Below, in pieces: positions 16,317 through 55,161 of a stretch of 64,000 nt of DNA. The stretch's first letter is position 1, and every line of letters starts with the position of its first letter. The notes below the pieces were generated by a model that was given only the letters and a program-made list of their open reading frames with translations, ran no database searches and was not told the DNA's origin. The stretch spans positions 32,001-96,000 of the forward strand of contig CAZPQW010000011.1 of the NCBI GenBank assembly GCA_964588985.1, in the 5' to 3' direction. The position numbers were made by a program, and so were the translations under genes. The stretch is from an uncultured Solirubrobacteraceae bacterium (lineage in GTDB: Bacteria; Actinomycetota; Thermoleophilia; Solirubrobacterales; Solirubrobacteraceae).

Positions 16317-17537
16317 CTACCCCTCGCGAGCGGAGGCCACGAACAGCTCCGTCGGCTCGGAGAAGCCCTTCAGCCGAACCTCGCCGATGCGGATGAACTC
16401 GAGGCCGTCGTGCCCCTGAGCGCTTTCCACCACCGAGCGCGTCACGAGCACCTCCCCGCCTCCCGCCCTTGCGACCACGCGCGCGGCCTGATTGACCTCG
16501 CGGCCGAAGTAGTCGCCGTCGCGGTAGAGCGCCTCGCCGTAGTGCACGCCGATCCGCGGCGGCGGCTCGCCGGGCGCGATCTGGTCCTGCAGGCCGACCG
16601 CCCATGCCGTCAGCGCGGCCACGTCGGAACCCACGACCATCACCTCGTCGCCGAGCGTCTTGATCACGCGCGCGTCCAGCGGCAGGCTCTGCGCAACGGC
16701 CCTGACGAACCCTTCCACCGTGCTTACCGCCGCCTCGTCCCCGCGCTCGACGGTCAGGCGCGCGTAGCCGGCGAGGTCGGCGAACGCGATCGCCACGCGC
16801 AGCCGTCCCTCCTCGAGGACGTCGTCGCCCAGGTCGGCCTCCATGTGACCGATCATGTCCTGCTCCACGAAGTGCGTGAGGAAACGGCCGTGCAGGTAGT
16901 TCATGAACGGCGCCGCGAACGGGAATATCTCGCGCACCAGCCCCTCCATCTCCTCGGCGACCTCGACGCTCGGCACGCCCGCGCGCATCAGCGGCTCGTG
17001 CACGTAGAGATGGACCAGCCGCACCTCCGCGTCGGCGATCTGCGCGATCACCTGGCCGTAGACGCGCATCAGCTGCAGGAACGCTGGCAGCGGAAAGCCA
17101 GCGCCGAGCATCGTGGACACGTAGCGCATCATCTCCAGGTCTTCGTCGGAGATCGCCTCCAGTGGAAGGGTGCCGAGGCCCATGGTGATGTAGATCTCTT
17201 CGATCAGCTCCGGCTTGACGCCGCTCTCGCGCGCGGCGTCCTTGAGCGAGTGCCGCGGCTCGGAGCTGCGCAGCATGTTCTCGATCGGCCCGACGGCGAG
17301 CTGGCCGTTGTCGCTGGCCTGCTTGATTCGCTCGAGCGTGTGACCGCGAGCGCGAAGCCTCGCGACCACGCGGACGTAGGCCATGGCGGAAGGGGTCCAG
17401 CGTCCGTCGTAGCCGGGGACCAGGCCCTTGGCGACCCAGCGGCGGACCGTCGCGGCGGAGACGCCAGCGCGCGCGGCCACCTGAGCGAGCGTCAGCTCGC
17501 CGGTCTCGCGCACTGGATCAGCGTCGGGCTCGTTCAC
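16317..17537 (-). CDS. Class III adenylate/guanylate cyclase with N-terminal MerR-like HTH and regulatory domain
   Basis: LAQVAARAGVSAATVRRW HTH; catalytic FADLAGY, KTLGDEVM, RIGVHYG, DYFGREVNQAAR, LKG. Confidence 0.88.
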   Translation of the reverse strand: MNEPDADPVRETGELTLAQVAARAGVSAATVRRWVAKGLVPGYDGRWTPSAMAYVRVVARLRARGHTLERIKQASDNGQLAVGPIENMLRSSEPRHSLKDAARESGVKPELIEEIYITMGLGTLPLEAISDEDLEMMRYVSTMLGAGFPLPAFLQLMRVYGQVIAQIADAEVRLVHLYVHEPLMRAGVPSVEVAEEMEGLVREIFPFAAPFMNYLHGRFLTHFVEQDMIGHMEADLGDDVLEEGRLRVAIAFADLAGYARLTVERGDEAAVSTVEGFVRAVAQSLPLDARVIKTLGDEVMVVGSDVAALTAWAVGLQDQIAPGEPPPRIGVHYGEALYRDGDYFGREVNQAARVVARAGGGEVLVTRSVVESAQGHDGLEFIRIGEVRLKGFSEPTELFVASAREG

Positions 17538-22182: not shown

Positions 22183-22683
22183 CTACATGTGCAGGTTGCC
22201 GATCACCTGGACTTCGGCGTTGGAGTTGTTGCGGTCGAGCACGCCGTAGAAGCCGCCCTTGCCGGAGATGTGCGCGTAGCGACCGGTCCCGCCTACGATC
22301 GTGGCGGTGCCTCCGAAGCTTTCATAGCGACCGTTGCCTGAGTGGAGTTTCGCGCTGCCGTGACCGGAGATCGAGCCGCCGCCGAGGTGAAACGTAAAGC
22401 TCGACGTGGTGGTGCTTCCGTTGAAGCTCAGTGTCGCGTGCGCCGTGCCCACGAGCGTGCCTGTGGCACGACCTTCCTCGGTCAGTGTGTTCCCGTTCGC
22501 GTTCAGCAGGTGCATCTTGGCCGCGTCTCGCACCACCAGGATCCGCGCCGTCACCGCGCTCGGCTGCCGCGACTCGCCGCGAGCGAGGCCCGCGGCGATG
22601 CCGCCGTCCAACGCCCCGCCGGCGACCGCCGCCACGGCGACCGCCGCGGCGAACATCCGGGTCTTGTTACCTGGGCGCACCAT
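22183..22683 (-). CDS. Secreted beta-rich hypothetical protein (dirigent/allene-oxide-cyclase-like motif)
   Basis: Signal-peptide-like MFAAAVAVAAVAGG..GIAAGLA; Gly/Thr-rich strands with IVGGTGRYAHISGKG; start 22683 or 22749 (ATGA overlap with the DUF2600 stop). Confidence 0.65.
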   Translation of the reverse strand: MVRPGNKTRMFAAAVAVAAVAGGALDGGIAAGLARGESRQPSAVTARILVVRDAAKMHLLNANGNTLTEEGRATGTLVGTAHATLSFNGSTTTSSFTFHLGGGSISGHGSAKLHSGNGRYESFGGTATIVGGTGRYAHISGKGGFYGVLDRNNSNAEVQVIGNLHM

Positions 22684-22745
22684 CAGCCCAACATATCCGG
22701 CAGTCGTGGAGCCCGGCGACAGTGTTTCCATCTGCGTCGAGGAGC

Positions 22746-23852
22746 TCATATGCGAGGCTCGCGCCCACTCCCAGACCGCGTGCGGCCCGCCGCGCGACGC
22801 GCGCGAAGCACCCACATGCTCGGTGTCGCCGCTCCCCCGAGCACAGCAAGGATGCGTTCGGATATGGGCGCGGCCTCGGGAAGGGAAGCCTCGGGGGCCG
22901 TCAGATAGAGACTGACCATGCCGGCGAGGATGAGGGCGTGCAGATCGCCGCCGCGCAGTCCGCGAGCCGCCCCCAGTGCCCGCTCGGTGATCATCTGTAA
23001 ACGCGCGCCCGCTTCCTCGGCTGAGCTGTAGTGAGACAGCAGGCTGACCTGTCCGGCGCCGGCGTCCTCACCTAGGTCGACGAGGCTGTCGAGCAGTGTG
23101 TGCAGAGCACCGATCCACGGGTAGTAGGCCCGCTCGATCGCGGCGATGTCCCCTGAGCTGAGCCGCGGATCAGCGGCGGCCGCGAGCAGCGCGAGGACCG
23201 CCAGCGAGGAGGCGCCGGCGGCGGCCGTCTCCCACCATTGCAGGGCTGAGTCTGGCGAGGTTTGATCGTCTGCCCAGCGCGCAAGAGCGCTGTGATCGCC
23301 CTGATTGAGTGCTTGATAGGCGATGATTCGAGTAATCGCAGCCTCGGTGGGCCCTGAAGCTGGACGGTTGTTCGACATTTGAGCGAGCGCACCGCGAGTC
23401 GTGTCGATCATGTCCAGGAGGTAGCCACCATCCTCGGAGCTCGCGCAAAGCGCGTAGTAGTCGTCGTGAGGGACCCCCGGTTGCAGCGCGCGCAGCAGTG
23501 CCAGGTGCAGCTGCCGCGCGTTTGCCGAGCGATCTCCGCAGGGCTGCTCGGCGAGCAGGTCGGCGTAGTCGTAGGCGGCCTGCCAGGCGACGATCATCCG
23601 CACCGTCAAAGCGCGGCTCCTGCTGGGCACAAGCACCGCAAACGCGGCTGCTCCCTCGATATTTCCGCGCTTCGACAGCTGCGCCTCGAGCGCGACCCGA
23701 CGCAGCAACGGATCGTCGATCGAGGCGGCACGAGCCTTCCAGTGGCGCATCTCCCGAGCGAGGTGGGGATATACGCCCAACCAGTAACGCAACGCCGTCT
23801 GAACAAACAAGGCCCCCGATGAGAAACGCCTCCATGTTGTGCTCATACGCAC
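22746..23852 (-). CDS. DUF2600 / YtpB-like (tetraprenyl-beta-curcumene synthase family, class IB terpene synthase) protein, copy 1
   Basis: YP.L.RE..HW..RA..IDDP.LR..AL, VAWQ..YDYADLLAE, DGGYL, WWE.AA.ASSL..LAL.A.A, AYYPWIGALH.LLDSLVD..ED, L..GMV.LYL. Confidence 0.82.
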   Translation of the reverse strand: MRMSTTWRRFSSGALFVQTALRYWLGVYPHLAREMRHWKARAASIDDPLLRRVALEAQLSKRGNIEGAAAFAVLVPSRSRALTVRMIVAWQAAYDYADLLAEQPCGDRSANARQLHLALLRALQPGVPHDDYYALCASSEDGGYLLDMIDTTRGALAQMSNNRPASGPTEAAITRIIAYQALNQGDHSALARWADDQTSPDSALQWWETAAAGASSLAVLALLAAAADPRLSSGDIAAIERAYYPWIGALHTLLDSLVDLGEDAGAGQVSLLSHYSSAEEAGARLQMITERALGAARGLRGGDLHALILAGMVSLYLTAPEASLPEAAPISERILAVLGGAATPSMWVLRARRAAGRTRSGSGREPRI

Positions 23853-23904
23853 AACATCGCCAGCGAACCGCCGCTGCCAAAGTCAGCTGACTGCTAAACC
23901 TGTG

Positions 23905-26472
23905 TCACTCCTGAAAGCTCGTCTGGGCCGATACGCGCGCCGCGGAAAGGCCCGGGAGGGCGACAACTGTGAGCGCGATGCCCCCGACGAGCAACAGCGT
24001 GAGCAGCACCTGCACCAGCCCAAGAGAGAAGGGCGCGGGGAACCCCGTCGTCAGTTTCAGCCACCGGCTCGCGAGTGCGTGGCCGTAGAGTCCGAAGATC
24101 GCGCCGTCGGCGCAACCGATCCCGAGGACGATGCCGCTCTCCAGCAAAAGCGAGCGCCACAGTTGGCGGCTGTCGAAGCCCTGGGACTTCAACGAGGCGA
24201 GCCTGTCCCGCCGCTGCCAGATCGCGGCGCTGAGCGCAAACGCAACCGACAGCGCAGCCACCAGTAGCAGCAGCGTCGATATCTGCCCCAGGCTCCGCAG
24301 GGCCTGCCTGGCGTTCGCACGGAACTGCGCTTCGCGCTGGCCACGCGTCTGCACCGACAGCCCCGGGCGCGCACCGATCGCCGCCTGAACCGATCGCACG
24401 CCCTGAGTCGGCGTCACCCCCGGCCGGAGGTTGACCTCCAGAGCCGCGGGATTCGTGGTCTGCCAGCCTCGACGGAAATCGGCTGTCGACATCGTGATCG
24501 CTCCCGCCGGCCATCCCACGTTCGTGGTGACCGCAGCCACACCAAGGCGCTGTTGCCCCGACGGTGTGGGCAGAGTGAAGCTACCGCCGACCTCGAGGTG
24601 GCGTTCGTCCGCGAACCCATCCGAGACCGCGGCCCAGCCGCCTTGACGCAGCAGGCTCGTGGCGTGGGCGAGGTTGCCCTCCAGCAACTGCGAGGACTGG
24701 ATCATCGCGCTGTCGCTCGGCGGCCGCGCGCGAATCCACAGCCTGCGTTTGCCGACGTCCAGGAGTGCGCCCTGATACACGCGCACCGAGGCCACGTCGC
24801 GCGTGCGGGCGATCCTGTCCACCGCGCCGCGAGCCAGGAAGCTGTCCGTGGTGAACACGTTTTCTCCGGTGGTCACCCACACGTCGGCGGTACCCAGATA
24901 CTGAGTGATCGCCGCGTTCAGGCCCGTGGTCAGATCGTGTCGTGCGCCCTGTATGGCCACGCTCCCGTACACCGCCAGCGCCGCCACGCTGGCAAGCGCG
25001 ACCGAGCGCGTGGCCGTGGCGCGCAGTTCGACCACCGCGAGCGCAAGCATGCTGCCGCGCAGACGCTCGCTGACCGGAGCGATCGCGGCGCCTGTGAGCG
25101 CGAAGATGCCCGGGCTCAGGCACGCGGCGGCGAGCGCGAGCAGCACTCCACCGACGATCGTCAGGCTGGGCGCCGCGAGCACCACGATCGTCACGGCCGC
25201 CAACAGCGTCAGGCCGATCGTGGTGAGCAGTGCGATCGAGCTCGTGCCAATGCCGTGGCCCACCTCACCCCGCTCGTGGAGAACCGCATCCACGGGACGC
25301 CGGGGATTCATGTCGAAGGTCGGCGGCAGCGATGCGAGCAATGCGGCGAGCACACCGCACGCCGTGGCCAGAAGGACCGTCGTCGTATGCACCACCTGGT
25401 GCGATCCGATCGGAAACGCAAACGTGAGGTAGCTGGGGATTTCGCGGAACAGCGTGCGCGACAGCAGACTCCCCGCGGCCACGCCCGCGAGCGAGGCGAC
25501 AACCCCGAGCATCACCGCCTGCGAGGCGAGGATCAGTAACACCTGCCGAGGTCCGAAGCCCTGTGTGCGCAGCTCCGCGACGAAGCGACGACGCTCGGGC
25601 ACCGTCAGCAGCATCGCGTTGAGCGCGAGCAGAAACCCGACCATCGCGCTGATCGCCGCGAACAGCGTCGTCGACTGGCTGGTCGGGCGAGCGGCCTGTT
25701 CGAGCAGCGCCAGCTCGTGATCGGCTGGCTCCACGTCGAGCCGCCCGCCCGCCAACCCGCGCAGCTCGCGTTCGACGCGTGCGTCCTGGCCCGCCTGAGG
25801 CTGAACCAGCACCTGCGTGACTCGTCGCGACTTGTCGGTGAGGCTCTGCGCCACCGGCAGCAGCGCCAAGACGATCGGGCTGTTTGCCACGGGCCCCACG
25901 ATCTGTTCGGGTAGGACCGCGCGCACGATCGCGGCGTGAGAGTCGCCGCTGGAGCGGATCTCGACCGACTGCCCGGCCTCGGCGTTCACGGCCGCCGCGA
26001 CGCTCGACGGGAGTCCGACTCCTCCTGTCAACAGCGACGTCCCGGCCCCGAGGTTCTTCGTTGCCGTGGTGTTGAGCGTGACCAGACTTGCTGTCACGCC
26101 GAGCACCTGGATCACCTGACGCCCCTTCGGCCCGACGATCACAGCGTCCTCTTTCAGGACCGGTGAGGCGACCCTCACTCCCGGCAGTTCTCCGACTCGC
26201 GTCGCCAACCGTTCGTCGAACCCACTGGAGGAGCGCGACACGAGCTGGAGGCGCGCGGTTCCCGTCACTGCGTGGACGAGGTCGCCGGCCGAGCTGACGA
26301 TGCTGGTGTTCGCGACGAGCACTCCGAACATCAGCGCCACGCCCGTCGCGATCCCCAAGCCAGCGAGCAGCTCCTGGATCTTGTGGTCCTTCAGCCGCCA
26401 GCGATAGAGGTCGATCAACGCGCTCAGCCGCACACCGAGCACGGCCGGCTTCGGCATTCTGCTGGGCATCAT
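23905..26472 (-). CDS. FtsX/MacB-type ABC transporter permease (two FtsX repeats), copy 1
   Basis: LLAGLGIATGVALMFGV, large extracytoplasmic domains, ERRRFVAELR..G and QRR..LASLKSQG FtsX motifs; start 26472 overlaps the ATPase stop. Confidence 0.9.
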   Translation of the reverse strand: MMPSRMPKPAVLGVRLSALIDLYRWRLKDHKIQELLAGLGIATGVALMFGVLVANTSIVSSAGDLVHAVTGTARLQLVSRSSSGFDERLATRVGELPGVRVASPVLKEDAVIVGPKGRQVIQVLGVTASLVTLNTTATKNLGAGTSLLTGGVGLPSSVAAAVNAEAGQSVEIRSSGDSHAAIVRAVLPEQIVGPVANSPIVLALLPVAQSLTDKSRRVTQVLVQPQAGQDARVERELRGLAGGRLDVEPADHELALLEQAARPTSQSTTLFAAISAMVGFLLALNAMLLTVPERRRFVAELRTQGFGPRQVLLILASQAVMLGVVASLAGVAAGSLLSRTLFREIPSYLTFAFPIGSHQVVHTTTVLLATACGVLAALLASLPPTFDMNPRRPVDAVLHERGEVGHGIGTSSIALLTTIGLTLLAAVTIVVLAAPSLTIVGGVLLALAAACLSPGIFALTGAAIAPVSERLRGSMLALAVVELRATATRSVALASVAALAVYGSVAIQGARHDLTTGLNAAITQYLGTADVWVTTGENVFTTDSFLARGAVDRIARTRDVASVRVYQGALLDVGKRRLWIRARPPSDSAMIQSSQLLEGNLAHATSLLRQGGWAAVSDGFADERHLEVGGSFTLPTPSGQQRLGVAAVTTNVGWPAGAITMSTADFRRGWQTTNPAALEVNLRPGVTPTQGVRSVQAAIGARPGLSVQTRGQREAQFRANARQALRSLGQISTLLLLVAALSVAFALSAAIWQRRDRLASLKSQGFDSRQLWRSLLLESGIVLGIGCADGAIFGLYGHALASRWLKLTTGFPAPFSLGLVQVLLTLLLVGGIALTVVALPGLSAARVSAQTSFQE

Positions 26473-27176
26473 CCAGCCGACGCAGGGACCAGATCTGGGT
26501 CCAAACCGTCGGACAGACGCCCGTCTTTGAGCGTATAGACACGGTCGACGAGCTGGCTCGCATGCGGATCGTGCGTTACCAGCAGGCCCGGCGTCTGGTG
26601 TTCGTGGCAGATATCGCGCAGCAGTTCGAGGGTCTGACTGCTGCGACGCGAGTCGAGGTTGCCCGTCGGCTCGTCGGTGAGCAGCAGCCGCGGCTCGTTG
26701 ACCAACGCCCGTGCGATCGCAACCCGCTGGCGCTCGCCCATCGACAGCCGGTCGGGCGTGTGTTCGGCTCGGGCGCCCAGCCCCACCCGCTCCAGCCACG
26801 GCTGCGCTCTTCGCCTGGCCTCACGCAGGCTCAGCCCGTGTCCCAGAAGCTTGATCGCGGCGTTGTCGAGCGCGGAGGCGCCGGAGATCAGATGGAACGT
26901 CTGGAAGACGAAGCCGACATCGTGGAGGCGATATGCGGCGCTCTCGGCCGCGCTCATACGCGAGACCTCGCTCCCGTCGAAGTGGATGCTCCCCTCGTCG
27001 GGCGTGAGCAGTCCGGCGGAGAGCAAGAGCAGCGTCGTCTTGCCGGACCCGCTGGGGCCGTACAGCGCTACGAACTCGCCCTCGGAGACCGTCAGCGAGA
27101 CACCGTCGACCGCGTTTACGACCTCGGCGCCACTTGGATAGTGCTTGACGACATCTCGCAGCTCCAGTGCGCTCAC
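26469..27176 (-). CDS. ABC transporter ATP-binding protein, LolD/MacB type, copy 1
   Basis: [43 protein letters not shown]; start GTG 27176. Confidence 0.93.
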   Translation of the reverse strand: MSALELRDVVKHYPSGAEVVNAVDGVSLTVSEGEFVALYGPSGSGKTTLLLLSAGLLTPDEGSIHFDGSEVSRMSAAESAAYRLHDVGFVFQTFHLISGASALDNAAIKLLGHGLSLREARRRAQPWLERVGLGARAEHTPDRLSMGERQRVAIARALVNEPRLLLTDEPTGNLDSRRSSQTLELLRDICHEHQTPGLLVTHDPHASQLVDRVYTLKDGRLSDGLDPDLVPASAG

Positions 27177-27916
27177 GGCGAGGAGCGCGCCCTGCCATAC
27201 GCACGCTGGTCCGGAAATTGGACGACCGTGCCAGCCTGGTCCATCGAGCGTAGCCGTCCCTGATCGATCGACATGATCCGGTGCGCACGGCGCAGGGGCG
27301 CCACGTCCTCGGAGGCGACCACGATCGCCACCCGCGAGTCCTTGCCAAGCGAGCACAGCAGGTCGTAGAGCTCCACGCCCTCGCTCGGGCTGAGCAGCAC
27401 CGCCGGCTCGTCGATCAGCAGCAGTCTCGGCTTGTGCACAAACGCGCGGGCGAGGGCGACCCTGACGCGCTCGACGCGTGAGAGGCGATCGGTGGCCATG
27501 TACGCGCAACGCGAGACGCCCATCCTTTCGAGCGCGAGATGAGCCGGCTCCTTGGCCTCGCGCAGGCTCATGCCATCGCTCAGCAGCGGCAGCGCCACGT
27601 GCTCGACGACCGGCTTGTTGCGTCCCGGACGCCAGTCGGTCGACACGAGCCCAATGCCGCCGTAGCGCTGCAGCTTCGCGCGCGCGTCCGCGGACATGCT
27701 CCCCACGTCGCGACCGTCGAACCACACAGACCCCGAGTCGGGGAGTTCCGTGGCCGCTGCCACCCGCAGCAGCGTCGTCTTGCCGGATCGCCGCACGCCC
27801 CATATGCCGACGAAGTCGCCCTCGTCGATTTCCAGCGACAGATCGTCGAGAGCTCGAATCTCCCCACGGCCATCCGCATAGGACTTCGTGACGTGCTGCA
27901 GCGAGAGGAGACTCAT
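27173..27916 (-). CDS. Degenerate ABC ATP-binding protein, copy 1
   Basis: ABC fold with GVRRSGKT Walker A, no Q-loop Gln, LSRVE signature, IDEP, and ASED in place of the H-loop. Confidence 0.88.
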   Translation of the reverse strand: MSLLSLQHVTKSYADGRGEIRALDDLSLEIDEGDFVGIWGVRRSGKTTLLRVAAATELPDSGSVWFDGRDVGSMSADARAKLQRYGGIGLVSTDWRPGRNKPVVEHVALPLLSDGMSLREAKEPAHLALERMGVSRCAYMATDRLSRVERVRVALARAFVHKPRLLLIDEPAVLLSPSEGVELYDLLCSLGKDSRVAIVVASEDVAPLRRAHRIMSIDQGRLRSMDQAGTVVQFPDQRAYGRARSSP

Positions 27917-28515
27917 CGCATCCTGCCTGTCGACTCATTGGCTACGAACTCCGCGATCCACCGTCGCGCCATGACGATCCATCGCAACTCCGCTTGAAGG
28001 CTCTCATCGACCGCCATCCGCGTCAAGTTCATCGCGAGGCCCGCCCACGAGCCCATCGGCACCTCGGCTTCCTGGGTCTTGTGCAGCATCGCGAAGCAGT
28101 CGCGTTCGTAGTCGTCGAGCGCGCTCAGAAGCTGGGGCGCGTGTCGCGCGCTCGACATCGCGATCTTCGCCTGCAGCTCCGCGCGCATCGGCTCCTTGCC
28201 GACTGGGGTTTCCATCCACGCAGCCACAACCGACTCGGCCCGCTCGGTCGCCAAGTAGACGCGCTGCCCATCGCCCACCCGCCCCGTCGCCTCCTTGATG
28301 CTCGAGGAGACGAGCCCGTCCTCCTCGAGCCGATCGAGCGTTCCGTAGACGCTCTGCCGGGTCACGCGCCACGCCGGGCCGAGACGCCGCTCGACGAGAG
28401 TTCCCAGGCGGTATCCGCCAAGCGGCTGATCGCCCTCGCTCACGAGCAGCGCGAGGAGCGCCCCCCGCAAGGGCGAGCCTCCCACCTGCTTCTTCTCCGG
28501 CATCGCCGCTGACAT
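27913..28515 (-). CDS. PadR family transcriptional regulator (AphA-like, long C-terminal domain), copy 1
   Basis: LRGALLALL, GY.L, W......VYGTLDRLE..GLV, RVY..T, C-terminal LQAELRW; start ATG 28515. Confidence 0.88.
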   Translation of the reverse strand: MSAAMPEKKQVGGSPLRGALLALLVSEGDQPLGGYRLGTLVERRLGPAWRVTRQSVYGTLDRLEEDGLVSSSIKEATGRVGDGQRVYLATERAESVVAAWMETPVGKEPMRAELQAKIAMSSARHAPQLLSALDDYERDCFAMLHKTQEAEVPMGSWAGLAMNLTRMAVDESLQAELRWIVMARRWIAEFVANESTGRMR

Positions 28516-28774
28516 CGCGCTCCACCCCCAAGTCGAGAGCCGTTTGGCAACAAGAACGATACGTGAAACTTCGATCGGTCGATAGATCGTTGGTCTGGAC
28601 AAAACTATCCCGACCAGCTGGCTGAGCCTTTCACATCCTGCGTATTACTGCTCGCATCTCGCATAGCGACAATGTTTACCGGGACATCCCGAACGTTTCT
28701 CACTGTTTATGAGTTGACAACCCATCAGGCGTGACCTATACAACGCGCGTCTGGCCGACGATCATCGCGCGTAC

Positions 28775-29164
28775 GTGATTACGAACGCACGAAGCTCCTC
28801 CCATGCCACATCGTCGACCGAGCCGGTGTACATCGAGCTGACCCAGGCCCAGGTCGATCGCGTCGTACGCGGAGCTTCGGGGGCGGGCACGATGTCCGCC
28901 CTGATGGCTGGGCTCGGAGGCGTACGCCAGACGCTGCAGGACGCACCTGAGCAGATCGAGGACAGACGCCTCTCCAGATCGCTGCTGTCCGGCCTGCTGC
29001 TGCTCGCCTGCTTCCCGACCGACGGCACGTACCTCAGCAACACCGAGGTCGCGCGACTGGTCGGCATGAACATGAGCACCGCCCACCGCTACATCTCCAC
29101 GCTCGTCTCGGTCGGACTGCTCGAACGCGACCCCGGAACGCGTCACTACCGGCTGGCGCAATGA
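28775..29164 (+). CDS. Small IclR-type HTH protein without effector-binding domain, copy 1
   Basis: SRSL..GL.LL.CF......SNTEVARLVGMNMSTAHRYISTLV.VGLLERDP.TR.YRL at the C-terminus; divergent from PadR. Confidence 0.82.
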   Translation: MITNARSSSHATSSTEPVYIELTQAQVDRVVRGASGAGTMSALMAGLGGVRQTLQDAPEQIEDRRLSRSLLSGLLLLACFPTDGTYLSNTEVARLVGMNMSTAHRYISTLVSVGLLERDPGTRHYRLAQ

Positions 29165-29814
29165 CGCTCCCCTTCGCCGCGGATCTCGGATCGACGACTC
29201 GGCCGTCCACGATCGATGACGGCCCGACGATCGTCGGCGAGGAGCAGGAGCTGCTCGATCTGCAGACCCAGCTGCTGCTCGCCGATCGCACCCATCCGGT
29301 CGTGGCGCTCACTCTCGACGAAGAGGAGATCGACGCCGCCGTCCTTTGGCTCGAGGAGATTCGCCCGATCGTCGGCCCGGACACGCGCGTCTACTTCGTC
29401 GAGGAACCTCTGTTGAGCCTCCTGCGCGAGGGACTCGGACGCAAGCTCGCACTGACACCCGGCTCGGCGCGGATCTGGTGGCCGGGGCTCTCCACGCGCA
29501 GCGATCCCGGCGACCACCCACTCGTGCTGGCGCTCGAGGGCGAGAGCCGCGTGGACGTGCTCGCTGAGCTCGCTCGCCAGTTCGACCTCAGCCGCCCGCA
29601 CGTCCGCCGCGAGCTCAAGCTCATCGAGGATGCTCGAGCGCTGGCTGAACACCGTCTCGCCGAGATCGTCGAGCAGGACCAGAGGACGGCGGAGCGCCTG
29701 CGCGACGCCCACCGCGAACGCCACCGTGAAGCGACCCGCGCACAGGCAGCCGAGGCTCGGCTGAACGATGCGCTCAAGCGGCTCGCGGAGTGCGACTGCG
29801 AAGAGTCGGCCTAG
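29161..29814 (+). CDS. Hypothetical protein (alpha/beta domain plus C-terminal coiled coil)
   Basis: ATGA overlap with the HTH gene; R..PVV.LT, GSARIWWPG....DP..HPL, heptad-rich C-terminus. Confidence 0.7.
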   Translation: MTLPFAADLGSTTRPSTIDDGPTIVGEEQELLDLQTQLLLADRTHPVVALTLDEEEIDAAVLWLEEIRPIVGPDTRVYFVEEPLLSLLREGLGRKLALTPGSARIWWPGLSTRSDPGDHPLVLALEGESRVDVLAELARQFDLSRPHVRRELKLIEDARALAEHRLAEIVEQDQRTAERLRDAHRERHREATRAQAAEARLNDALKRLAECDCEESA

Positions 29815-36323: not shown

Positions 36324-37001
36324 GTGACACGACTCGCACACGCATGGCACGCGATGCGCCCTGAGCAGCGGCTGGCCGCGCTGGCCGCGCTCGCGCTGCT
36401 CGTGACGATGTTCTTCCCGTGGTACGGGCTGCAGAGCCTCAACCCCAAGACCAAGGCGATCTACTCGCACAACATCAGCGCGTTCGGCGACGTGTCGTTC
36501 GTCGAGGCCGCGATCTTCCTCGTCGCCGTCGGAGTGGTCGCGATGCTGATCGCACGTGCGGAGGGACGCGACTTCCAGCTGCCCGGAGGCGACGGCACGG
36601 TCGTGCTGATCACGGGCGCGTGGGCGGGCCTCCTGATCTTCTACCGCGTGTTCAGCCGACCCGCCGGCGACGGCTACCCGGTGGGGATCGAGTGGGGGTT
36701 CTTCCTCGCGTTCGTCGCCGCCGGCGGCCTCGCGTTCGCGGGGTTGAGGATGCGCGCGGGCGAACGGCCCTCGCCTCCGCTCGTGCGCCCGCGCGGTGAA
36801 CAGCGCAGGCGCACGCCGGTCAATCCGAGGCCCGTCGATCCGGACAGCCCCGTGCTCGCCTCCGGTCCGCTTCGCCACCATCGCTCCGCGCCGGTTCCCG
36901 CTGCTCGCACGCCGCCCGTCGAGCGCTCGCCGTATCCGCCGGCACCGTCCGGCAAGCCCGAGCAGCTCTCCTTCGAAGACCCGCCCACGCGGGCGGAGTA
37001 G
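36324..37001 (+). CDS. Hypothetical integral membrane protein (4 TM plus Pro-rich tail)
   Basis: Hydrophobic helices with FPWY and WGFFLA motifs; leaderless-type TAGACT 8 nt upstream. Confidence 0.72.
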   Translation: MTRLAHAWHAMRPEQRLAALAALALLVTMFFPWYGLQSLNPKTKAIYSHNISAFGDVSFVEAAIFLVAVGVVAMLIARAEGRDFQLPGGDGTVVLITGAWAGLLIFYRVFSRPAGDGYPVGIEWGFFLAFVAAGGLAFAGLRMRAGERPSPPLVRPRGEQRRRTPVNPRPVDPDSPVLASGPLRHHRSAPVPAARTPPVERSPYPPAPSGKPEQLSFEDPPTRAE

Positions 37002-37062
37002 CCGTACCGCCGAGCCACGCGCGCGGCCCCGCTCTCAGCCGACGCCTATCATTGGTTCGACG

Positions 37063-37980
37063 ATGTCCGCGCCCCTGCCACCCTCGCCAGCCTCCGTCGC
37101 GGAGCTGGCAGCGGGTTTGCGCGAGGTCGGCTACCTGCCCGGCGAGTCGACCGCGCTGGTGTCGTTCCTGGCGACCAAGCTCGGCAAGCCCGTGCTCGTG
37201 GAGGGTCCCGCCGGGGTCGGCAAGACCGAGCTCGCGAAGGCGCTCGCGAGACACCTGGGCCGCGAGCTGGTGCGCCTGCAGTGCTACGAGGGGCTCGACG
37301 AGGCGAAGGCGCTGTACGAGTGGAACTACCGCAAGCAGCTGCTGCGCATCCAGGCGGAGGCGACCGACACCGGCTGGGACGCAGTGCAGGAGGACATCTT
37401 CGGCGACGAGTTCCTGCTCGCACGCCCGCTGATGACCGCGATCGCCTCCCCCGAGCCGGTTGTGCTGCTGATCGACGAGATCGACAAGACCGACCAGGAG
37501 TTCGAGGCGATGCTGCTGGAGGTGCTCTCCGACTTCCAGATCTCGATCCCCGAGCTGGGTCTCGTGCAGGCGCGCACGCACCCGGTGGTGCTGCTCACGT
37601 CGAACAACTCGCGTGAGCTCACCGAGGCGCTCAAGCGCCGCTGCCTGTACCTGTGGCTCGACTACCCCGAGCTCGAGCACGAGCTGGAGATCGTGCGGCT
37701 GCACGCACCCGAACTCGACGAGACGGTCGCCCGCCGGCTGGTGGAGGTCGTGGGCATGGTGCGCGCACTGGACCTGAAGAAGCCGCCGTCGATCGCGGAG
37801 TCGATCGACTGGGCGCGCGCGCTACTCTTGCTCGGCGTCAAGGACATCGACTCGGACACCTTCATGGAAACGATGTCGGTGATCGTCAAGCACCGCACCG
37901 ACATGGACGTGGTCGCCGATCGCGTGGGCCTGAAGCTCAGCTCGCCCGCTGCGACCGGGCCGGCGCCGCATGTCGCCTGA
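37063..37980 (+). CDS. MoxR family AAA+ ATPase (CoxD-like)
   Basis: VEGPAGVGKTELAK, RLQCYEGLD..ALYEWNY.KQLL, LLIDEIDK, LTSN..REL.EALKRRC. Confidence 0.92.
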   Translation: MSAPLPPSPASVAELAAGLREVGYLPGESTALVSFLATKLGKPVLVEGPAGVGKTELAKALARHLGRELVRLQCYEGLDEAKALYEWNYRKQLLRIQAEATDTGWDAVQEDIFGDEFLLARPLMTAIASPEPVVLLIDEIDKTDQEFEAMLLEVLSDFQISIPELGLVQARTHPVVLLTSNNSRELTEALKRRCLYLWLDYPELEHELEIVRLHAPELDETVARRLVEVVGMVRALDLKKPPSIAESIDWARALLLLGVKDIDSDTFMETMSVIVKHRTDMDVVADRVGLKLSSPAATGPAPHVA

Positions 37981-39379
37981 GGCCGACTCGCCCCTGAGCA
38001 CCCCCAGGCCGGAGGGCCTGCCCGCACGGATACTCGAGCTGGGCGAGGAGCTGCGCCGCGAAGGCATCGCGGTGGGCACCTCGGAGCTGCTCGACGCGTT
38101 CGAGGTGCTACGCGAGATCCCGTGGACGCTTCAGGAGGACTTCCGCGAGGCGCTCGCGGCGACGCTCGCCAAGAGCCAGGAGGACCGGCGCGTGTTCGAG
38201 CTGGTGTTCGACCGCTTCTTCTTCCGCGCCGTCGAGGTCGCCGCCGCGCGCGAGGGCATCCGCGAGGAGGATCTCTCGGAGCTCGGCGAGCTCTCCGAGG
38301 AGGAGCTCGAGGCGCTGCGCACGCAGATTGCCGCCGCGCTGCGCGATGGCTCGGAGGGCGCGATGCGCGACCTCGCGCGCATGGCGATCGCCGCGTTCGC
38401 CCGCCGTCAGGAGGGCTCGGGGGTGATCGGCGTGGACGTGCAGCGCATCCGCCGTGCGCTCGGCCTGCGCGCCGAGCCACAGCCCGACCTGCCCGCCGAG
38501 GACCCGCGCCGCGACGGGCTGCCGCGCGAGGCGCTGCGCCGCTTCGAGGCGCTCCTGAGACGAGAGTTGGAGCGCGGGCAGATCGAGCGCACCGGCAACC
38601 TCCCCCCCGCACGCCCGCTCGGGGAAATGGACCGCGCGCTGCCCTCCGGCCCGCTCGCGGACCTCGCCGCGGTGCACCGCGTCGTCGCGCAGCTGCGCCG
38701 CCGCCTCGCCACCCAGGGACTGCAGGCGCGCGGGCACCGCCGCCACGCGCACGTGGACGTGCGGCGCACGATGCGCGCCTCGCTTCAGACCGGCGGCGTG
38801 CCGGTGGTGCTGAAGTACCGCCCACGCCGCCCCAAACGACCGGAGATCTACGTCCTGTGCGACGTGTCCACGAGCGTCACCTCCGCGTCGGTGTTCTTCC
38901 TGTCGGTGCTCCACGCTCTCCACGACACGTTCCGCAAGATGCGCTCGTTCGTGTTCATCGAGCGGATCTCCGAGGTGACGGACATCTTCGAACACGAGCG
39001 GAACTTCAAGGCGGTCAGCGAGAAGATCTCCGGCGACGCGGGCGTGGCGGACATCTCCGGCTACACCGACTACGGACGCGTGTGGTCGGAGTTCCTGGTG
39101 CAGGTGGAGGACGACCTCCACCCGCGCGCCACGGTGATCGTGCTCGGCGACGCGCGCACCAACGGGCGCGACCCGCGCGCGGACATCTTCGCTCAGATCG
39201 CGGCGCGCGCCGGACGCACGTTCTGGCTGAACCCGGAGCCGCGGCTGTACTGGAACTACGGCGACTCGGTGATCTCCGCGTACGAGCAGTACTGCACCGC
39301 GTTCGAGTGCTGGACGACCGCGCAGCTGGAGGACTTCGTGCGCGCGCTCACGCGGCCGGTCGTCGCGGCGCCGCGCTAG
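37970..39379 (+). CDS. VWA domain protein (CoxE-like)
   Basis: DVRRTMRASL.TGG.P, LCDVSTSV MIDAS-like, YTDYG, VLGDARTN, WLNPEP. Confidence 0.88.
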   Translation: MSPEADSPLSTPRPEGLPARILELGEELRREGIAVGTSELLDAFEVLREIPWTLQEDFREALAATLAKSQEDRRVFELVFDRFFFRAVEVAAAREGIREEDLSELGELSEEELEALRTQIAAALRDGSEGAMRDLARMAIAAFARRQEGSGVIGVDVQRIRRALGLRAEPQPDLPAEDPRRDGLPREALRRFEALLRRELERGQIERTGNLPPARPLGEMDRALPSGPLADLAAVHRVVAQLRRRLATQGLQARGHRRHAHVDVRRTMRASLQTGGVPVVLKYRPRRPKRPEIYVLCDVSTSVTSASVFFLSVLHALHDTFRKMRSFVFIERISEVTDIFEHERNFKAVSEKISGDAGVADISGYTDYGRVWSEFLVQVEDDLHPRATVIVLGDARTNGRDPRADIFAQIAARAGRTFWLNPEPRLYWNYGDSVISAYEQYCTAFECWTTAQLEDFVRALTRPVVAAPR

Positions 39380-47106: not shown

Positions 47107-47264
47107 CGTCTCAATATGGCGTAATCGGACACGCTCTGCGCGCGCTCCTGGTCGTGAGCGCGGCGCAGGGCTCGACCCAACGGTGACTACCTGTCGGAAC
47201 AGTTCGGTAGGCGCCCTCGCGGTGATGTATCTTCCACGTACCATTTCCTGAGACGAGGAAGCGA

Positions 47265-47852
47265 ATGGCAAGCGTAAGTCCGGAGAAGACTAAGTGGATG
47301 CGGGGGGCATCGACGCCGCTGCGAGGCGCGCTGCTCGGCCTGCTGCTCGAACGCCCGGGCCACGGAGGAGATCTGGCCAACCGGCTGGCCGCACGGCTGG
47401 GCGAGACGTGGCGCGTCGACACGAACGACGTCTACCGCCTGCTCGAGCAGCTCGAGCGCACAGGCCTCGCGAGCTCGCGCGACGAGCCCAAGCGCAGCAA
47501 CCAGCGACGGACGCATCTCGTGTACCACCCAACGGAGGAGACCTCCGAGGCTCTCACGACGTGGATGGAAACGCTGCTGCCGCGAGAGCCGGTGCGACTT
47601 GGCCTGCAGGCCAAGCTGTCTGTCGCGCGACCACAGGACGCGCCACGCCTGCTGATCGCGCTGCGAGCCTACGAGCGCGAGTGCTTGGTCCTCGCTCAGC
47701 TGGTCTGTCCCTCGGACTTCTATGCACGCTCGTGGGCGGCGCTGTGCATGGAGTGCACGCGCGACGCCGTCTACGCGCAACTGCAGACGGAAGTGGATTG
47801 GGCGACGCGGACCCGACAGCGGATCAACGAGTTCCTGGAACACAACTCGTAG
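47265..47852 (+). CDS. PadR family transcriptional regulator, copy 2
   Basis: LRGALLGLL.ERP.HG.DL, W......VYRLLEQLE..GL, PVR..LQAK, YEREC, LQTEVDW; paralog of 27913-28515. Confidence 0.88.
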   Translation: MASVSPEKTKWMRGASTPLRGALLGLLLERPGHGGDLANRLAARLGETWRVDTNDVYRLLEQLERTGLASSRDEPKRSNQRRTHLVYHPTEETSEALTTWMETLLPREPVRLGLQAKLSVARPQDAPRLLIALRAYERECLVLAQLVCPSDFYARSWAALCMECTRDAVYAQLQTEVDWATRTRQRINEFLEHNS

Positions 47853-47865
47853 GGCTAACGGTGCG

Positions 47866-48615
47866 ATGACGCCGCTGCTCTCATTCCTGAACGTGACCAA
47901 GCGCTACCCGGACGGCGGGCGGGAGATCCTCGTCCTCGACCGCGTCTCGCTCGACATCGAGCCCGGCGCGTCGGTCGGCGTTTACGGCTCCCGCCGCTCC
48001 GGCAAGTCCACGCTGCTGCGCATGGCCGCCGGAGTCGCCTCGCCGGACTCGGGATCGGTCAGCTTCGACGGCCACGACATGGCGGACATGACCTCCGCGC
48101 AGCGAGGCCGACTGCTGCGCGGAGCGATCGCGTTCATGTGCGCGGACGACTGGCTCGCGAACCCCGGCGAGAGCATCGCCGACCACGTCGCCACCTCGCT
48201 CGGCAGTCAGGGACTGACGATGCGCGAAGCCAGGCATAAGGCGCTGCGGATCCTCGACCACGTCGACATCGACGAGAAGGCCTCCGAGAAGATGACCGTG
48301 TCGCTGTCACTGACCGAACGCACGCGGGTGATGCTCGCGCGAGCACTTGCCCGAGAGCCGCGCCTGCTGGTGCTCGACGAACCGGCGGCGATGCCCAGCC
48401 CCGGCGACCGCGGCAAGTTCCATGAACTGCTGCGCTCGGTGGCGAGGGAGCGTGGCATGGCGCTGCTCGTCGCCTCTGAGGAAATGGCGGCACTGAGCGG
48501 CTTCGACGTGCTGATGTCGATCTCCGAAGGCGAACTGTGCTCGACCGACGAGCGAGGCATGCTCGCACGCCTGCCGAAACCCCCACTGCCCGACCCGGAG
48601 CCATCGACACCGTGA
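47866..48615 (+). CDS. Degenerate ABC ATP-binding protein, copy 2
   Basis: GSRRSGKS Walker A, no Q-loop Gln, LSLTE signature, LDEP, and ASEE in place of the H-loop; start ATG 47866. Confidence 0.88.
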   Translation: MTPLLSFLNVTKRYPDGGREILVLDRVSLDIEPGASVGVYGSRRSGKSTLLRMAAGVASPDSGSVSFDGHDMADMTSAQRGRLLRGAIAFMCADDWLANPGESIADHVATSLGSQGLTMREARHKALRILDHVDIDEKASEKMTVSLSLTERTRVMLARALAREPRLLVLDEPAAMPSPGDRGKFHELLRSVARERGMALLVASEEMAALSGFDVLMSISEGELCSTDERGMLARLPKPPLPDPEPSTP

Positions 48616-49316
48616 GCACGCTCGAATTGCGCGAGGTCAGCAAGCACTACGCCACCAGCGTGGAGACCGTCACGGCCGTGGACCGGGTCTCGCTGTCGGT
48701 TTCCAGCGGGGAGTTCGTGGCGCTCTACGGCCCGAGCGGATCGGGCAAGACGACGCTGCTGATGCTGGCGGCCGGCCTCACTCCGCCGGACGACGGCAGC
48801 GTGCTGTTCGACGGGCAGAACGTGGGCGCGCTGTCCGAGCGCGACAGTGCTCTCTACCGTCGTCGGGATGTGGGCTTCGTCTTTCAGTCCTTCCACCTGA
48901 TGCCCCATACGTCAGCGCTCGACAACGCCACGATCAAGCTCACCGGCAGCGGCTACACCCTGCGCGAGGCGCGCACGCAGGCCCTGCCGTGGCTCGAGCG
49001 CGTCGGCTTGGCGGCGCGCTCGGAACACACGCCGGAGCAGCTCTCGATGGGTGAGCGACAGCGGGTCGCGATCGCCCGTGCCCTCGTCAGCGATCCGCGA
49101 CTGCTGCTGGCGGACGAGCCGACCGGCAATCTCGACTCCAAGCGCAGCCAGGAGATACTCGGGTTGATGCGCGACGTCTGCCACGAACGCTCGATTCCCG
49201 GAGTGCTCGTCACTCACGACCTCGAAGCCACACGGTTCGTCGATCGCGTGTACACGCTGCGCGACGGACAACTGATCGACGGGATGGATTCAGAGCTGGC
49301 AGCGACCTCCTCGTGA
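48612..49316 (+). CDS. ABC transporter ATP-binding protein, LolD/MacB type, copy 2
   Basis: [44 protein letters not shown]; start GTG 48612. Confidence 0.93.
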
Positions 49317-51928: not shown

Positions 51929-51966
51929 ATGTGTAGTAACCGATACCGCAGGCCGAAACTGTTCCT

Positions 51967-53073
51967 GTGGCCGGCTACCCCAGGAGTCGATTAGGTCTGG
52001 CCAGAGCGTTTTCGGGCGCAGCCGCAAAGTATTGGCTCGAGATCTTCCCCCAGGTCAAACGCGAGCTGCGCCACTGGCATCGACAAGCGCTTCGAATCCC
52101 GGACCCGGGACTGCGACGCCAAGCCCTGGCCACCCAACATGCCGAGCGTGGCAATCTCGACGGGGCTGCGGCGTTCGCCGTGCTCGCACCCCGCGCCCAC
52201 CGGGCGCAGGTGGTGCGCGCCAGCATCGCGTTCCAAATCGCCTACGAATACGTCGACTCGCTCGCCGAGGAGCCCAACAGCGACCCGCTGGCGAATGGCG
52301 AGCGGCTTCACCTGGCGCTGCTCGCGGCGCTCGATCCACACATCGAGCAGCCCGACTACTACGAGTTCCATGCGGGCAAATGCGACAACGGCTACATCAC
52401 ATACCTCGTCGGCACCTGCAGAGAGGCACTCGCCACGCTCCCGTCCTACGACACAGTGGCAGACGATGCGCTGCGGGCCGCGCGACGCATGGCCGCCTAC
52501 CAGAGCCTCAACCACGATCCTCGCGGAGAGGTCATGGCGCTCGCGCGGTGGGCCTCGGACCTGACGCCCACTGGAACTGGACTGCGCTGGTGGGAGACGG
52601 CAGCCGGCGCGGCTTCCTCGCTCACCCTCCTTCCTCTCATCGCGGCAGCCGCACAGCCCGCGCTCGACGCAAGTGAGGCCAGCGCGATGGACAGCGCCTA
52701 CTTCCCATGGATTGGCTCCCTCAACCAGTTGCTCGACAGCCTGATCGACCAGGCCGCGGATCGCGAGGCCGGCCATCACAGCCTCGTCGATCACTACGTG
52801 TCGATCGAGGAAATGGCTGCACGCCTCGGCTCGATCGCGACCCGCGCCATGCAGGCCACCGAGTCGATATCCGGGAGCATCCAGCATGCGCTGATCCTCG
52901 CGGCGATGAGTAGCTACTACCTCTCGGCGCCAGGAGCGCTGACTCCCAGCGCGAGAGTCGTGGCGCGACATGTGCTGGATGCCATGGGTGCGTTGGCGAA
53001 GCCCACGATGCTCATCCTGCGCATGCGACGCGAGGCCGGTCGGCTTCTCACCGACCCGATCGTCGACAGTTAG
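51967..53073 (+). CDS. DUF2600 / YtpB-like (class IB terpene synthase family) protein, copy 2
   Basis: IFP.V.RELRHW..QA..IPDP.LR.QAL, FQIAYEYVDSLAE, DNGY, WWETAAGAASSL, AYFPWIG.L..LLDSLIDQ..D. Confidence 0.82.
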   Translation: MAGYPRSRLGLARAFSGAAAKYWLEIFPQVKRELRHWHRQALRIPDPGLRRQALATQHAERGNLDGAAAFAVLAPRAHRAQVVRASIAFQIAYEYVDSLAEEPNSDPLANGERLHLALLAALDPHIEQPDYYEFHAGKCDNGYITYLVGTCREALATLPSYDTVADDALRAARRMAAYQSLNHDPRGEVMALARWASDLTPTGTGLRWWETAAGAASSLTLLPLIAAAAQPALDASEASAMDSAYFPWIGSLNQLLDSLIDQAADREAGHHSLVDHYVSIEEMAARLGSIATRAMQATESISGSIQHALILAAMSSYYLSAPGALTPSARVVARHVLDAMGALAKPTMLILRMRREAGRLLTDPIVDS

Positions 53074-53242
53074 AAAACGGCCTCTTAGACGATTCGCCAT
53101 AAGTTACTCGAGAGTCAAGTATTGGACTTTCCCCTTGTCGCGGATTCGCACCATCGACATGATCATAGGTGCGTGACACTGGATCGAAACGCTGTCCTTC
53201 TGCGTATCCAAGTCCAGATTCCCGCTCTCGTCTCGCCAGTGA

Positions 53243-53273
53243 GTGAGCCGGGCGTCCCTGGCGTCCGGCTCAC
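53243..53273 (+). other. Strong RNA hairpin upstream of the IclR-type HTH gene
   Basis: GTGAGCCGGGCGTC-CCT-GGCGTCCGGCTCAC: 14-bp stem including two G-U pairs, followed by GTTT. Confidence 0.5.
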
Positions 53274-53297
53274 GTTTGATCGCACGATCGGGTCTCA

Positions 53298-55156: not shown

Positions 55157-55161
55157 GATTC

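Follow-up and report, generated by a model that had tools for sequence, protein, structure and literature searches.

Why should a gene of the terpene synthase-like family DUF2600 stand in an operon for an ATP-binding cassette (ABC) transporter? The question is raised by a stretch of 64,000 nucleotides from an uncultured Solirubrobacteraceae bacterium (contig CAZPQW010000011.1; hereafter the window), in which the arrangement occurs twice, at 22183–29164 (copy 1) and at 47265–53660 (copy 2). Both cassettes encode, by Pfam, a PadR-family regulator, a degenerate ABC ATPase (ATP1), a canonical ABC ATPase (ATP2), a fused two-FtsX permease, a DUF2600 protein and a small IclR-type protein with only the helix-turn-helix (HTH) of its family. 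That these six components recur in copy 2 had been proposed in an earlier, sequence-only reading of this DNA, and the Pfam assignments bear it out. Copy 1 also encodes a secreted beta-barrel protein (SEC). From the homology of the proteins, the architecture of the cassette and the linkage and co-distribution of its genes we infer the likely substrate and product of the enzyme, the direction of transport and the ligands of the regulators. We conclude that the cassette probably makes, and removes or exports, large terpenoid lipids.

Recurrence and descent of the cassette

Do the enzyme and the transporter belong together? The 3.4-Mb assembly that contains the window has five DUF2600 genes, all directly after PadR–ATP1–ATP2–permease. 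We examined 74 DUF2600 loci: these five, 20 from five other genomes (7/7 in G023, 2/2 in G005, 2/2 in G008, 5/7 in G025 and 4/7 in G003) and 49 found with peptide patterns of copy 2. The source organisms are uncultured Solirubrobacteraceae or Solirubrobacterales, and all genomes are metagenome-assembled. The loci were annotated with hidden Markov models built from the paralogues of this genome, together with a heuristic for gene calls based on G+C content at third codon positions (GC3). DUF2600 adjoins ATP2 and the permease in 63 of the 74. The order in 51 of these (type A) is PadR–ATP1–ATP2–permease–DUF2600, PadR being present in 49 and the other two loci being cut by contig ends. The other 12 (type B) lack PadR and ATP1; all 12 have SEC, plus DUF2600–ATP2–permease, with DUF2600 upstream of ATP2. 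Given five cassettes in one genome and 63 of 74 loci with DUF2600 beside ATP2 and the permease, the recurrence is far beyond chance. The sequence-only reading had staked its case on DUF2600 keeping company with this ABC and PadR set in other genomes, and on these counts it stands. Its six-component set describes both window copies and is too strict elsewhere, about one-sixth of the loci being without PadR and ATP1 and with SEC.

What of the remaining 11 loci? These (solo) have no ABC neighbour. DUF2600 follows an N6_N4-methylase-like gene in eight of them, is divergent from a cytochrome P450 gene in one and is followed by a cis-prenyltransferase gene in two. At three loci of another Solirubrobacterales clade (L051:8016–10640, L072:8121–10098 and L047:8016–10596) DUF2600, again without ABC genes, overlaps the end of an N6_N4 DNA-methylase-like gene; a 170-aa protein of no assigned family follows it in L051 and L047, in L051 the arrangement lies near recA, and both L051 and L072 have P450 and TetR genes in the vicinity. 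A different arrangement is seen at two loci named Conexibacter sp. and Actinomycetes bacterium (L068:10349–13628 and L070:10346–11080), where DUF2600 is immediately followed by a second ATPase gene and, in L068, that ATPase gene by a second fused FtsX permease. The arrangement looks like cassettes in tandem.

How widely is the pair distributed? Of 36 other genomes in the genus, 30 have DUF2600, a single genome giving as many as 17 matches. No match came from 24 genomes of other families of the order or from 400 other genomes of the phylum (252 genera), among them eight from other genera of the family. A search of 120 further genomes of the class, at E 1e-30, gave no member of the permease subfamily. 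Enzyme and permease also go missing together: G013 and G014 (88% and 92% complete), members of the genus without DUF2600, are without the permease too, and G023, G002 and G005 have both. Within the genomes searched, the synthase and permease subfamilies are found only in this Solirubrobacteraceae genus. Among public sequencing runs 23 matched, all of DNA; most are rhizosphere metagenomes, and several may be the very sample from which the genome came.

How did a genome come by so many cassettes? DUF2600 paralogues within a genome are 29–58% identical. The two window copies, at 38% identity for PadR, 42% for ATP1, 67% for ATP2, 53% for the permease, 47% for DUF2600 and 53% for the IclR-HTH protein, are old paralogues. 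Pairwise identity of the other components correlates with that of DUF2600 (Spearman 0.76 for the permease, 0.90 for ATP1 and 0.86 for PadR), the value for the permease being 0.61 over 47 within-genome paralogue pairs. The components thus co-diverge with DUF2600, and the cassette therefore duplicated as a unit, its genes remaining linked at identities as low as 29%. A maximum-likelihood tree of 69 DUF2600 sequences, with five fragmented ones left out and a midpoint root only, places the 11 type B enzymes in one clade and the methylase-linked solos in another, both nested among type A. On the evidence of these sequences we conclude that the whole cassette was duplicated, and diverged, many times within one Solirubrobacteraceae genus.

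Such a history allows a simpler explanation of the linkage, namely that a DUF2600 gene landed by an unrelated PadR–ABC efflux operon in an ancestor and was then copied along. Whole-cassette duplication alone would give both the recurrence and the co-divergence. The GC3 of the cassette genes, 0.79–0.85 (0.91 for the small IclR gene of copy 2) against 0.87–0.94 for most neighbours, is a possible trace of foreign origin or of a different expression level, and the former would hint at arrival as one block. Yet the link has survived divergence to 29% identity with coding frames intact, it has survived rearrangement to the type B order (one clade of 11), and in G013 and G014 DUF2600 and the permease were lost together. 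We regard a purely historical adjacency as very improbable.

Enzyme, transporter and secreted barrel

What does the DUF2600 protein do? YtpB (BsuTS) of Bacillus subtilis is a tetraprenyl-beta-curcumene synthase. The window proteins match PF10776 over their whole length at 227.8 and 246 bits against a cut-off of 25, and all five copies of the genome lie above that cut-off. Copy 2 aligns over residues 23–320 with BalTS of B. alcalophilus (5yo8) at E 3.4e-33, so that the family assignment made from the window alone is upheld. With YtpB/BsuTS, BalTS and BclTS (B. clausii) they share PF10776, an alignment of some 300 residues and acidic motifs at the same positions. No membrane segment is seen in copy 2, and one weak hydrophobic segment in copy 1.

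Are the metal-binding residues retained? The stretches D-Y-A-D-L-L-A-E and D-S-L-V-D-L-G-E-D of copy 1 align to the two Asp-rich motifs of BalTS. Motif 1 of the Bacillus class IB enzymes, DYLDNLxD, here reads D-Y-x-D-x-L-x-E, and motif 2, DY(F,L,W)IDxxED, reads D-S-x-x-D-x-x-x-D. In an alignment of 69 sequences the first motif has Asp at position 1 in 54 of them, with Asn in 11, Gln in three and Glu in one; Asn belongs to all 11 type B enzymes and the lone Glu to copy 2. Position 4 is Asp in 68 and Asn in one, position 8 is Glu in all 69, and the Asn of the consensus is not conserved. Acidic character is kept at two or three of the three positions, the last of which is never Asp. In motif 2 the three Asp never vary (69/69), Ser takes the place of Tyr in 62 of 69, and the Glu is variable. 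The six acidic positions correspond to Asp residues of BalTS any one of which, when mutated, costs the enzyme its activity (PMC5939612). By this alignment the metal motifs of class IB terpene synthases appear to be kept in variant form.

Might the protein then have ceased to be a synthase, and serve the transporter as a polyprenyl (di)phosphate-binding or regulatory subunit, for example in gating or loading? No sequence matches the Bacillus consensus in motif 1, Glu standing for the last Asp in 69 of 69 and Asn or Gln for the first in 14. That the gene is kept in nearly every cassette, at 29–58% identity between paralogues, could reflect a cassette-specific protein contact. On the other hand, five of the six acidic positions are almost invariant (four at 68–69 of 69, the fifth Glu in all), and a change from Asp to Glu retains a metal ligand. 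Moreover, the 11 solo loci keep the gene with no transporter beside it, two of them next to a cis-prenyltransferase and one next to a P450. We consider a non-catalytic role quite improbable. The retained acidic motifs, and the genes for a prenyltransferase or for tailoring enzymes that occasionally lie alongside, speak for DUF2600 being catalytically active in a small biosynthetic pathway that uses long polyprenyl diphosphates.

From where would it draw its substrate? Both window cassettes lack a prenyl diphosphate synthase, as had been noted, and the genes around them serve ordinary housekeeping or regulation, no enzyme for tailoring terpenoids being seen among them. The earlier statement fails for the cassette on contig C4, ordered PadR–ATP1–ATP2–permease–DUF2600–UPPS–SEC. 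The UPPS-family cis-prenyltransferase at C4:138268–138897 is the second of its kind, 70% identical to the copy on contig C3. DUF2600 adjoins UPPS at three of the 74 loci (the C4 cassette, L069 and L074), and since some DUF2600 copies adjoin a cis-prenyltransferase, the substrate may not be an all-trans C25–C35 diphosphate. To our knowledge no class IB synthase uses a cis-polyprenyl diphosphate. The genome also has two trans-polyprenyl synthases and one squalene-hopene-cyclase-like gene. A scan downstream of DUF2600, covering 45 of 77 candidate open reading frames at 17 loci, placed a P450 gene immediately after DUF2600 in L008 and L017 and a methyltransferase and an SDR after the IclR gene in L014. 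The cis-prenyltransferase, the P450 and the methyltransferase with SDR point to biosynthesis in some cassettes, in line with the terpenoid-making part that the sequence-only reading had supposed.

How large is this group of enzymes? Searching 1.84 billion representative proteins with copy 2 DUF2600 gave 1,253 matching clusters, 457 of them at E 1e-30 or better, and the Glu variant of motif 1 is present in 128 of the best 150 of the 1,253. The radiation of the Solirubrobacteraceae type is thus a large part of the known DUF2600 family. A genome here holds 5–17 diverged copies, against one class IB synthase gene in Bacillus. Here the gene lies inside an ABC operon, whereas the Bacillus gene lies with a hydrolase in the ytpAB operon and not in a transporter operon.

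What kind of transporter accompanies the enzyme? The permeases have two extracytoplasmic loops of about 215–230 aa, each followed by an FtsX module; that of copy 1 has nine strong hydrophobic segments, with loops of about 215 aa after the first and the sixth. This layout, on present evidence, is that of the fused two-FtsX permeases of type VII ABC transporters, among them YbbP of E. coli. To type VII permeases of solved structure (LolC, MacB) they bear only a weak similarity, at E of about 1e-3. NCBIfam and structure-sequence matches to LolC/E and MacB are likewise weak, the copy 2 permease matching LolC 7arh at 8.5e-4 and MacB 5lil at 2.7e-3; no YbbP chain stands among its matches to solved structures. 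MacB_PCD gives a match, under its cut-off of 27 bits, to the copy 2 permease only (E 6.6e-5, 23.7 bits). The two FtsX stretches and the LolC/MacB-like matches agree with the MacB/LolCDE-type FtsX permease first suggested.

ATP1 is degenerate in all 48 aligned sequences, having lost the Q-loop Gln, the signature Gly and the H-loop His and kept Walker A and B, and the motifs of ATP2 are all canonical in 57–59 of 59; the pairing of a degenerate with a normal ATPase, called from two cassettes, is confirmed in these alignments. LolD is the best NCBIfam match of both ATPases, below its cut-off, and DevA matches too. For ATP2 the best are LolD, FtsE, DarD, YbbA and MacB (1e-61 to 1e-50), all below equivalog cut-offs; in copy 2 LolD comes first at 1.1e-61 and YbbA reaches 3.3e-51, neither above cut-off.

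A parallel is offered by E. coli YbbAP, a fused type VII system which is proposed to extract hydrophobic compounds from the inner membrane for the partner enzyme TesA (PMC12646458). The two systems share a fused two-FtsX permease, two extracytoplasmic domains, LolD/MacB-type ATPases and a genetic tie to a lipid-handling enzyme. The tied enzyme differs: cytoplasmic and synthetic here, as a terpene synthase homologue, and a periplasmic hydrolase in YbbAP–TesA. In contrast to YbbAP, the cassette has two different ATPase genes, one of them degenerate, in a Gram-positive-type actinobacterium, and its candidate outside partner is a beta-barrel of no known family, present in some cassettes only. LolCDE–LolA and DevBCA, the heterocyst glycolipid exporter, resemble the cassette in that its ATPases match LolD and DevA and its permease weakly LolC/E, all below family cut-offs. 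Unlike both, the cassette is without lipoprotein or glycolipid pathway genes.

Could SEC be that outside partner? The model of the copy 1 protein has a pLDDT of about 90 over eight strands. Foldseek matches it to the barrels of dirigent, pyocyanin demethylase, AbyU (of the Diels-Alderase type) and allene oxide cyclase, with E of 6.5e-4 to 1e-2 and TM of about 0.5. As modelled, SEC resembles small-molecule barrels, which is a resemblance and not a family assignment. A protein-cluster search returned unnamed actinobacterial clusters only; DUF3224 and AOC_like scored below 0.9 and are leads only. By gene adjacency SEC is a candidate extracytoplasmic partner of the permease. LolA, which takes over cargo in a soluble protein with a hydrophobic cavity, is a model for the hand-over, and SEC is not LolA-like by fold search.

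Regulators and other genes of the window

How might the cassette be controlled? Both PadR assignments made in the sequence-only reading lie above the PF03551 cut-off (table 1). The closest solved relative of copy 2 PadR is AphA (1yg2, E 7.7e-6), and the two-domain length of 195–200 aa is likewise shared. PadR is the most diverged component, at 17–57% identity among within-genome paralogues. Upstream of copy 2, the palindrome at 47192–47209 and a TATTGT-like element are the only conserved non-coding blocks in 14 aligned upstream regions of its orthologue group, and the palindrome occurs once in the window at up to one mismatch. It would be the site bound by PadR. The intergenic region between PadR and the IclR-type gene of copy 1 yielded no inverted repeat at the settings used and no counterpart of this palindrome.

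The small IclR proteins carry HTH_IclR preceded by an extra 55–70 aa, and IclR_C, which with the HTH defines the IclR family, is missing from both window proteins, so that they are effector-less as first described. An N-terminal I-E-L-T-x-x-Q motif and the winged HTH are conserved across 24 aligned homologues; in the model of the copy 2 protein the winged HTH is confident and the N-terminal 55 aa are poorly predicted. The gene had been described as divergent. This is so in copy 1, but in copy 2 it lies downstream of DUF2600 and co-directional with it, as it does in 38 of the 40 type A loci with an IclR-type gene, the other two having it upstream and divergent. A full-length IclR (HTH plus IclR_C) follows DUF2600 in 13 of 17 other loci scanned. 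Lying 25 bases before the start of the copy 2 gene is an inverted repeat (53243–53273; 12-base arms, 92% complementary, 7-base spacer) that may be an operator or a hairpin.

Might the 217-aa protein encoded after the IclR-HTH gene of copy 1 be a split-off IclR effector domain? It has no match to IclR_C, which rules this out. A paralogue, 46% identical, lies directly downstream of the DUF2600 gene of contig C20; no homologue was found at the other loci examined.

Convergent to copy 2, on the minus strand at 53663–55920, lie genes for a HAMP histidine kinase (497 aa) and an OmpR-type response regulator. Pairs 72–86% identical to it stand beside the cassette at 11 other loci and fall into two paralogue clades, the copy 2 group and the group of L009, L015 and L024. 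The pair could reflect synteny or form a third regulatory layer.

Genes of copy 1 overlap by four bases (ATGA or GTGA) at PadR/ATP1, ATP1/ATP2, ATP2/permease and DUF2600/SEC, the ATP1/ATP2 junction being GTGA; the first three are the stop/start overlaps reported from PadR through the permease. Copy 2 has overlaps at ATP1/ATP2 and ATP2/permease only, and a 13-base gap after PadR.

Table 1. Positions of the cassette genes and of the candidate operator in the window.
Feature	Position	Strand	Remarks
Copy 1 SEC	22183–22749	−	signal peptide and eight-stranded beta-barrel; ATG overlaps DUF2600 stop; no Pfam/NCBIfam match
Copy 1 DUF2600, class IB large-terpene synthase homologue	22746–23852	−	368 aa; PF10776 E 2e-67, 227.8 bits
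Copy 1 fused permease	23905–26474	−	855 aa; FtsX E 8.4e-20, 2 stretches; two extracytoplasmic domains
Copy 1 ATP2, LolD/MacB-type	26469–27178	−	GTG at 27176; assigned by 67% identity to copy 2 ATP2
Copy 1 ATP1	27173–27916	−	ABC_tran E 1.4e-19; Walker A and B kept
Copy 1 PadR-family regulator	27913–28515	−	likely ATG at 28515; PF03551 E 3.6e-8, 33.7 bits (cut-off 27)
Copy 1 IclR-type HTH-only protein	28775–29164	+	129 aa by longest open reading frame, start uncertain; divergent from PadR; HTH_IclR E 1.6e-12, without IclR_C
Copy 1 217-aa acidic protein	29161–29814	+	start overlaps IclR-HTH stop; no Pfam/NCBIfam match; possible accessory
Copy 2 candidate operator	47192–47209	+	imperfect palindrome TGTCGGAA-N3-TTCGGTA, ~55–75 nt before PadR ATG
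Copy 2 PadR-family regulator	47265–47852	+	195 aa; PF03551 E 4e-9, 36.8 bits (cut-off 27)
Copy 2 ATP1	47866–48615	+	ABC_tran E 8.1e-24; degenerate motifs
Copy 2 ATP2	48612–49316	+	ABC_tran E 7.3e-35; canonical
Copy 2 fused two-FtsX permease	49313–51928	+	871 aa; FtsX E 1.5e-18, 2 stretches
Copy 2 DUF2600, class IB large-terpene synthase homologue	51967–53073	+	368 aa; PF10776 E 6e-73, 246 bits
Copy 2 IclR-type HTH-only protein	53298–53660	+	120 aa; HTH_IclR E 9e-14, without IclR_C; 225 bases past DUF2600, co-directional

Elsewhere the window holds, at 16317–17537 (minus strand), a single open reading frame with a MerR HTH, an adenylate-cyclase regulatory domain and a partial cyclase catalytic domain. 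At 36796–39379 (plus strand) the gene for a MoxR-like AAA ATPase precedes that for a VWA CoxE-like protein, a pairing that is common but poorly understood. A HipA-like kinase of toxin–antitoxin type, with HipA_C and Couple_hipA domains, is encoded at 60833–62065 (plus strand).

Making and extracting a lipid, or defending the envelope?

How would the parts work together? Type VII ABC transporters, of which LolCDE is an example, work by mechanotransmission and extract lipidic cargo from the outer leaflet. We propose that each cassette is a self-regulated module that makes and extracts a large terpenoid lipid, an account to which we give roughly even chances. Bound to a palindrome peculiar to its cassette, PadR would keep the operon repressed until displaced by a hydrophobic ligand. 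DUF2600, in the cytoplasm and homologous to the class IB synthases, would then ionise a long polyprenyl diphosphate drawn from the host pool or, in some cassettes, supplied by a dedicated cis-prenyltransferase. The product would be a very hydrophobic terpene that partitions into the membrane. From there it would be pulled by a type VII machine of the MacB/LolCDE/YbbAP kind, acting by mechanotransmission and made up of one fused two-FtsX permease and the canonical ATPase, to which the long form adds the catalytically degenerate one. In cassettes like copy 1 the lipid would pass on to the secreted eight-stranded barrel. The HTH-only IclR, or the full-length IclR of other cassettes, would provide a second layer of control.

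Several observations weigh against this proposal. DUF2600 occurs without ABC genes at 11 of 74 loci, and in this genome ABC cassettes occur without DUF2600 on contig C1 (PadR–ATP1–ATP2–permease) and contig C22 (SEC–ATP2–permease). A prenyl diphosphate synthase is present at only three of 74 loci, and tailoring enzymes at few. In motif 1, Glu stands in place of the last Asp throughout the 69 enzymes, and Asn or Gln in place of the first in 14; since mutating the corresponding Asp of BalTS abolished activity, some copies may have altered or no synthase activity. The 49 loci collected with peptide patterns of copy 2 bias the sampling towards its relatives. Why one cell needs 5–17 such modules is left unexplained by making and extracting a lipid. 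The published phenotypes of Bacillus ytpB concern antibiotic tolerance and not export.

Might the cassette, then, be an envelope-stress or antibiotic-defence module that acts on the polyprenyl diphosphate pool, a possibility that the sequence-only reading had not raised? PadR would sense a membrane- or cell-wall-active compound, the type VII machine would protect or clear its target at the outer face in the manner of BceAB, and DUF2600 would lower free long-chain polyprenyl diphosphate or supply a membrane-stabilising terpenoid; the many diverged cassettes would correspond to many different soil antimicrobials. A repressor joined to a pump, in many copies, is a typical detoxification arrangement. 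Operons for bacitracin resistance combine an ABC transporter with an undecaprenyl diphosphate phosphatase, and in Listeria PadR repressors control antibiotic-detoxifying ABC transporters. A BceAB-type module has a 10-helix permease with a single large extracellular loop and a cognate BceRS-type two-component system, and occurs as several paralogous modules per genome. The divergence of PadR and the cassette-specific operators fit diversified ligand sensing, and pyocyanin demethylase, a secreted toxin-degrading enzyme, is among the best fold matches of SEC.

The Bacillus literature cuts both ways. Deletion of ytpB in B. subtilis leads to accumulation of heptaprenyl diphosphate, and this accumulation is reported to sensitise the cells to bacitracin and has been linked to the FtsX-family transporter BceAB, but it does not inhibit BceAB (PMC7038271, citing Kingston 2014 for the sensitisation). 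Cell-wall antibiotics induce the ytpAB operon through sigma-M, and the operon has a part in resistance to bacitracin (bioRxiv 10.1101/2024.01.17.576085). The cassette resembles a BceAB-type module in its FtsX-family ABC transporter, in having several paralogous modules per genome and in the published link between YtpB, polyprenyl diphosphate and bacitracin tolerance. It differs in its permease, with two extracytoplasmic domains as in LolCE, MacB and YbbP where BceB has its single large loop, and in its control, a PadR gene within the operon where BceAB has a BceRS-type system; the kinase convergent to copy 2 is of the HAMP type and 497 aa long. The cis-prenyltransferase, the P450s and the methyltransferase with SDR look biosynthetic, and making and then destroying a carrier lipid within one operon would be hard to explain. 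We think a defensive role, the foremost of the alternatives, unlikely. Were it true, the cassettes would represent a new type of inducible protection from antibiotics aimed at lipid carriers.

Extraction of a terpenoid lipid admits of a bolder version. The cassettes may be autonomous lipid modules, restricted to one genus and amplified 5- to 17-fold, each with its own large terpenoid, made from a cis-polyprenyl substrate in some. A YbbAP-like extractor with an asymmetric ATPase pair would deliver the product to secreted barrels, PadR and IclR would sense the products, and the externalised terpenoids, a diversified repertoire, would serve as signals or surface coatings. No terpene synthase would before this have been coupled to a type VII ABC machine. 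This picture as a whole is doubtful, with a modest chance of being right.

What would follow for the family and its hosts? No description coupling a DUF2600 or class IB synthase to an ABC transporter was found in the literature searched, which did not cover most subscription journals. So far as that literature goes, the characterised class IB terpene synthases are all from Bacillus, and here is a large radiation of their homologues. If the cassette makes and extracts a lipid, a type VII ABC transporter would here act after a biosynthetic enzyme, a role new to its class. The link to a membrane extractor would then offer a route to new large terpenoids of the abundant, uncultured Thermoleophilia of soil.

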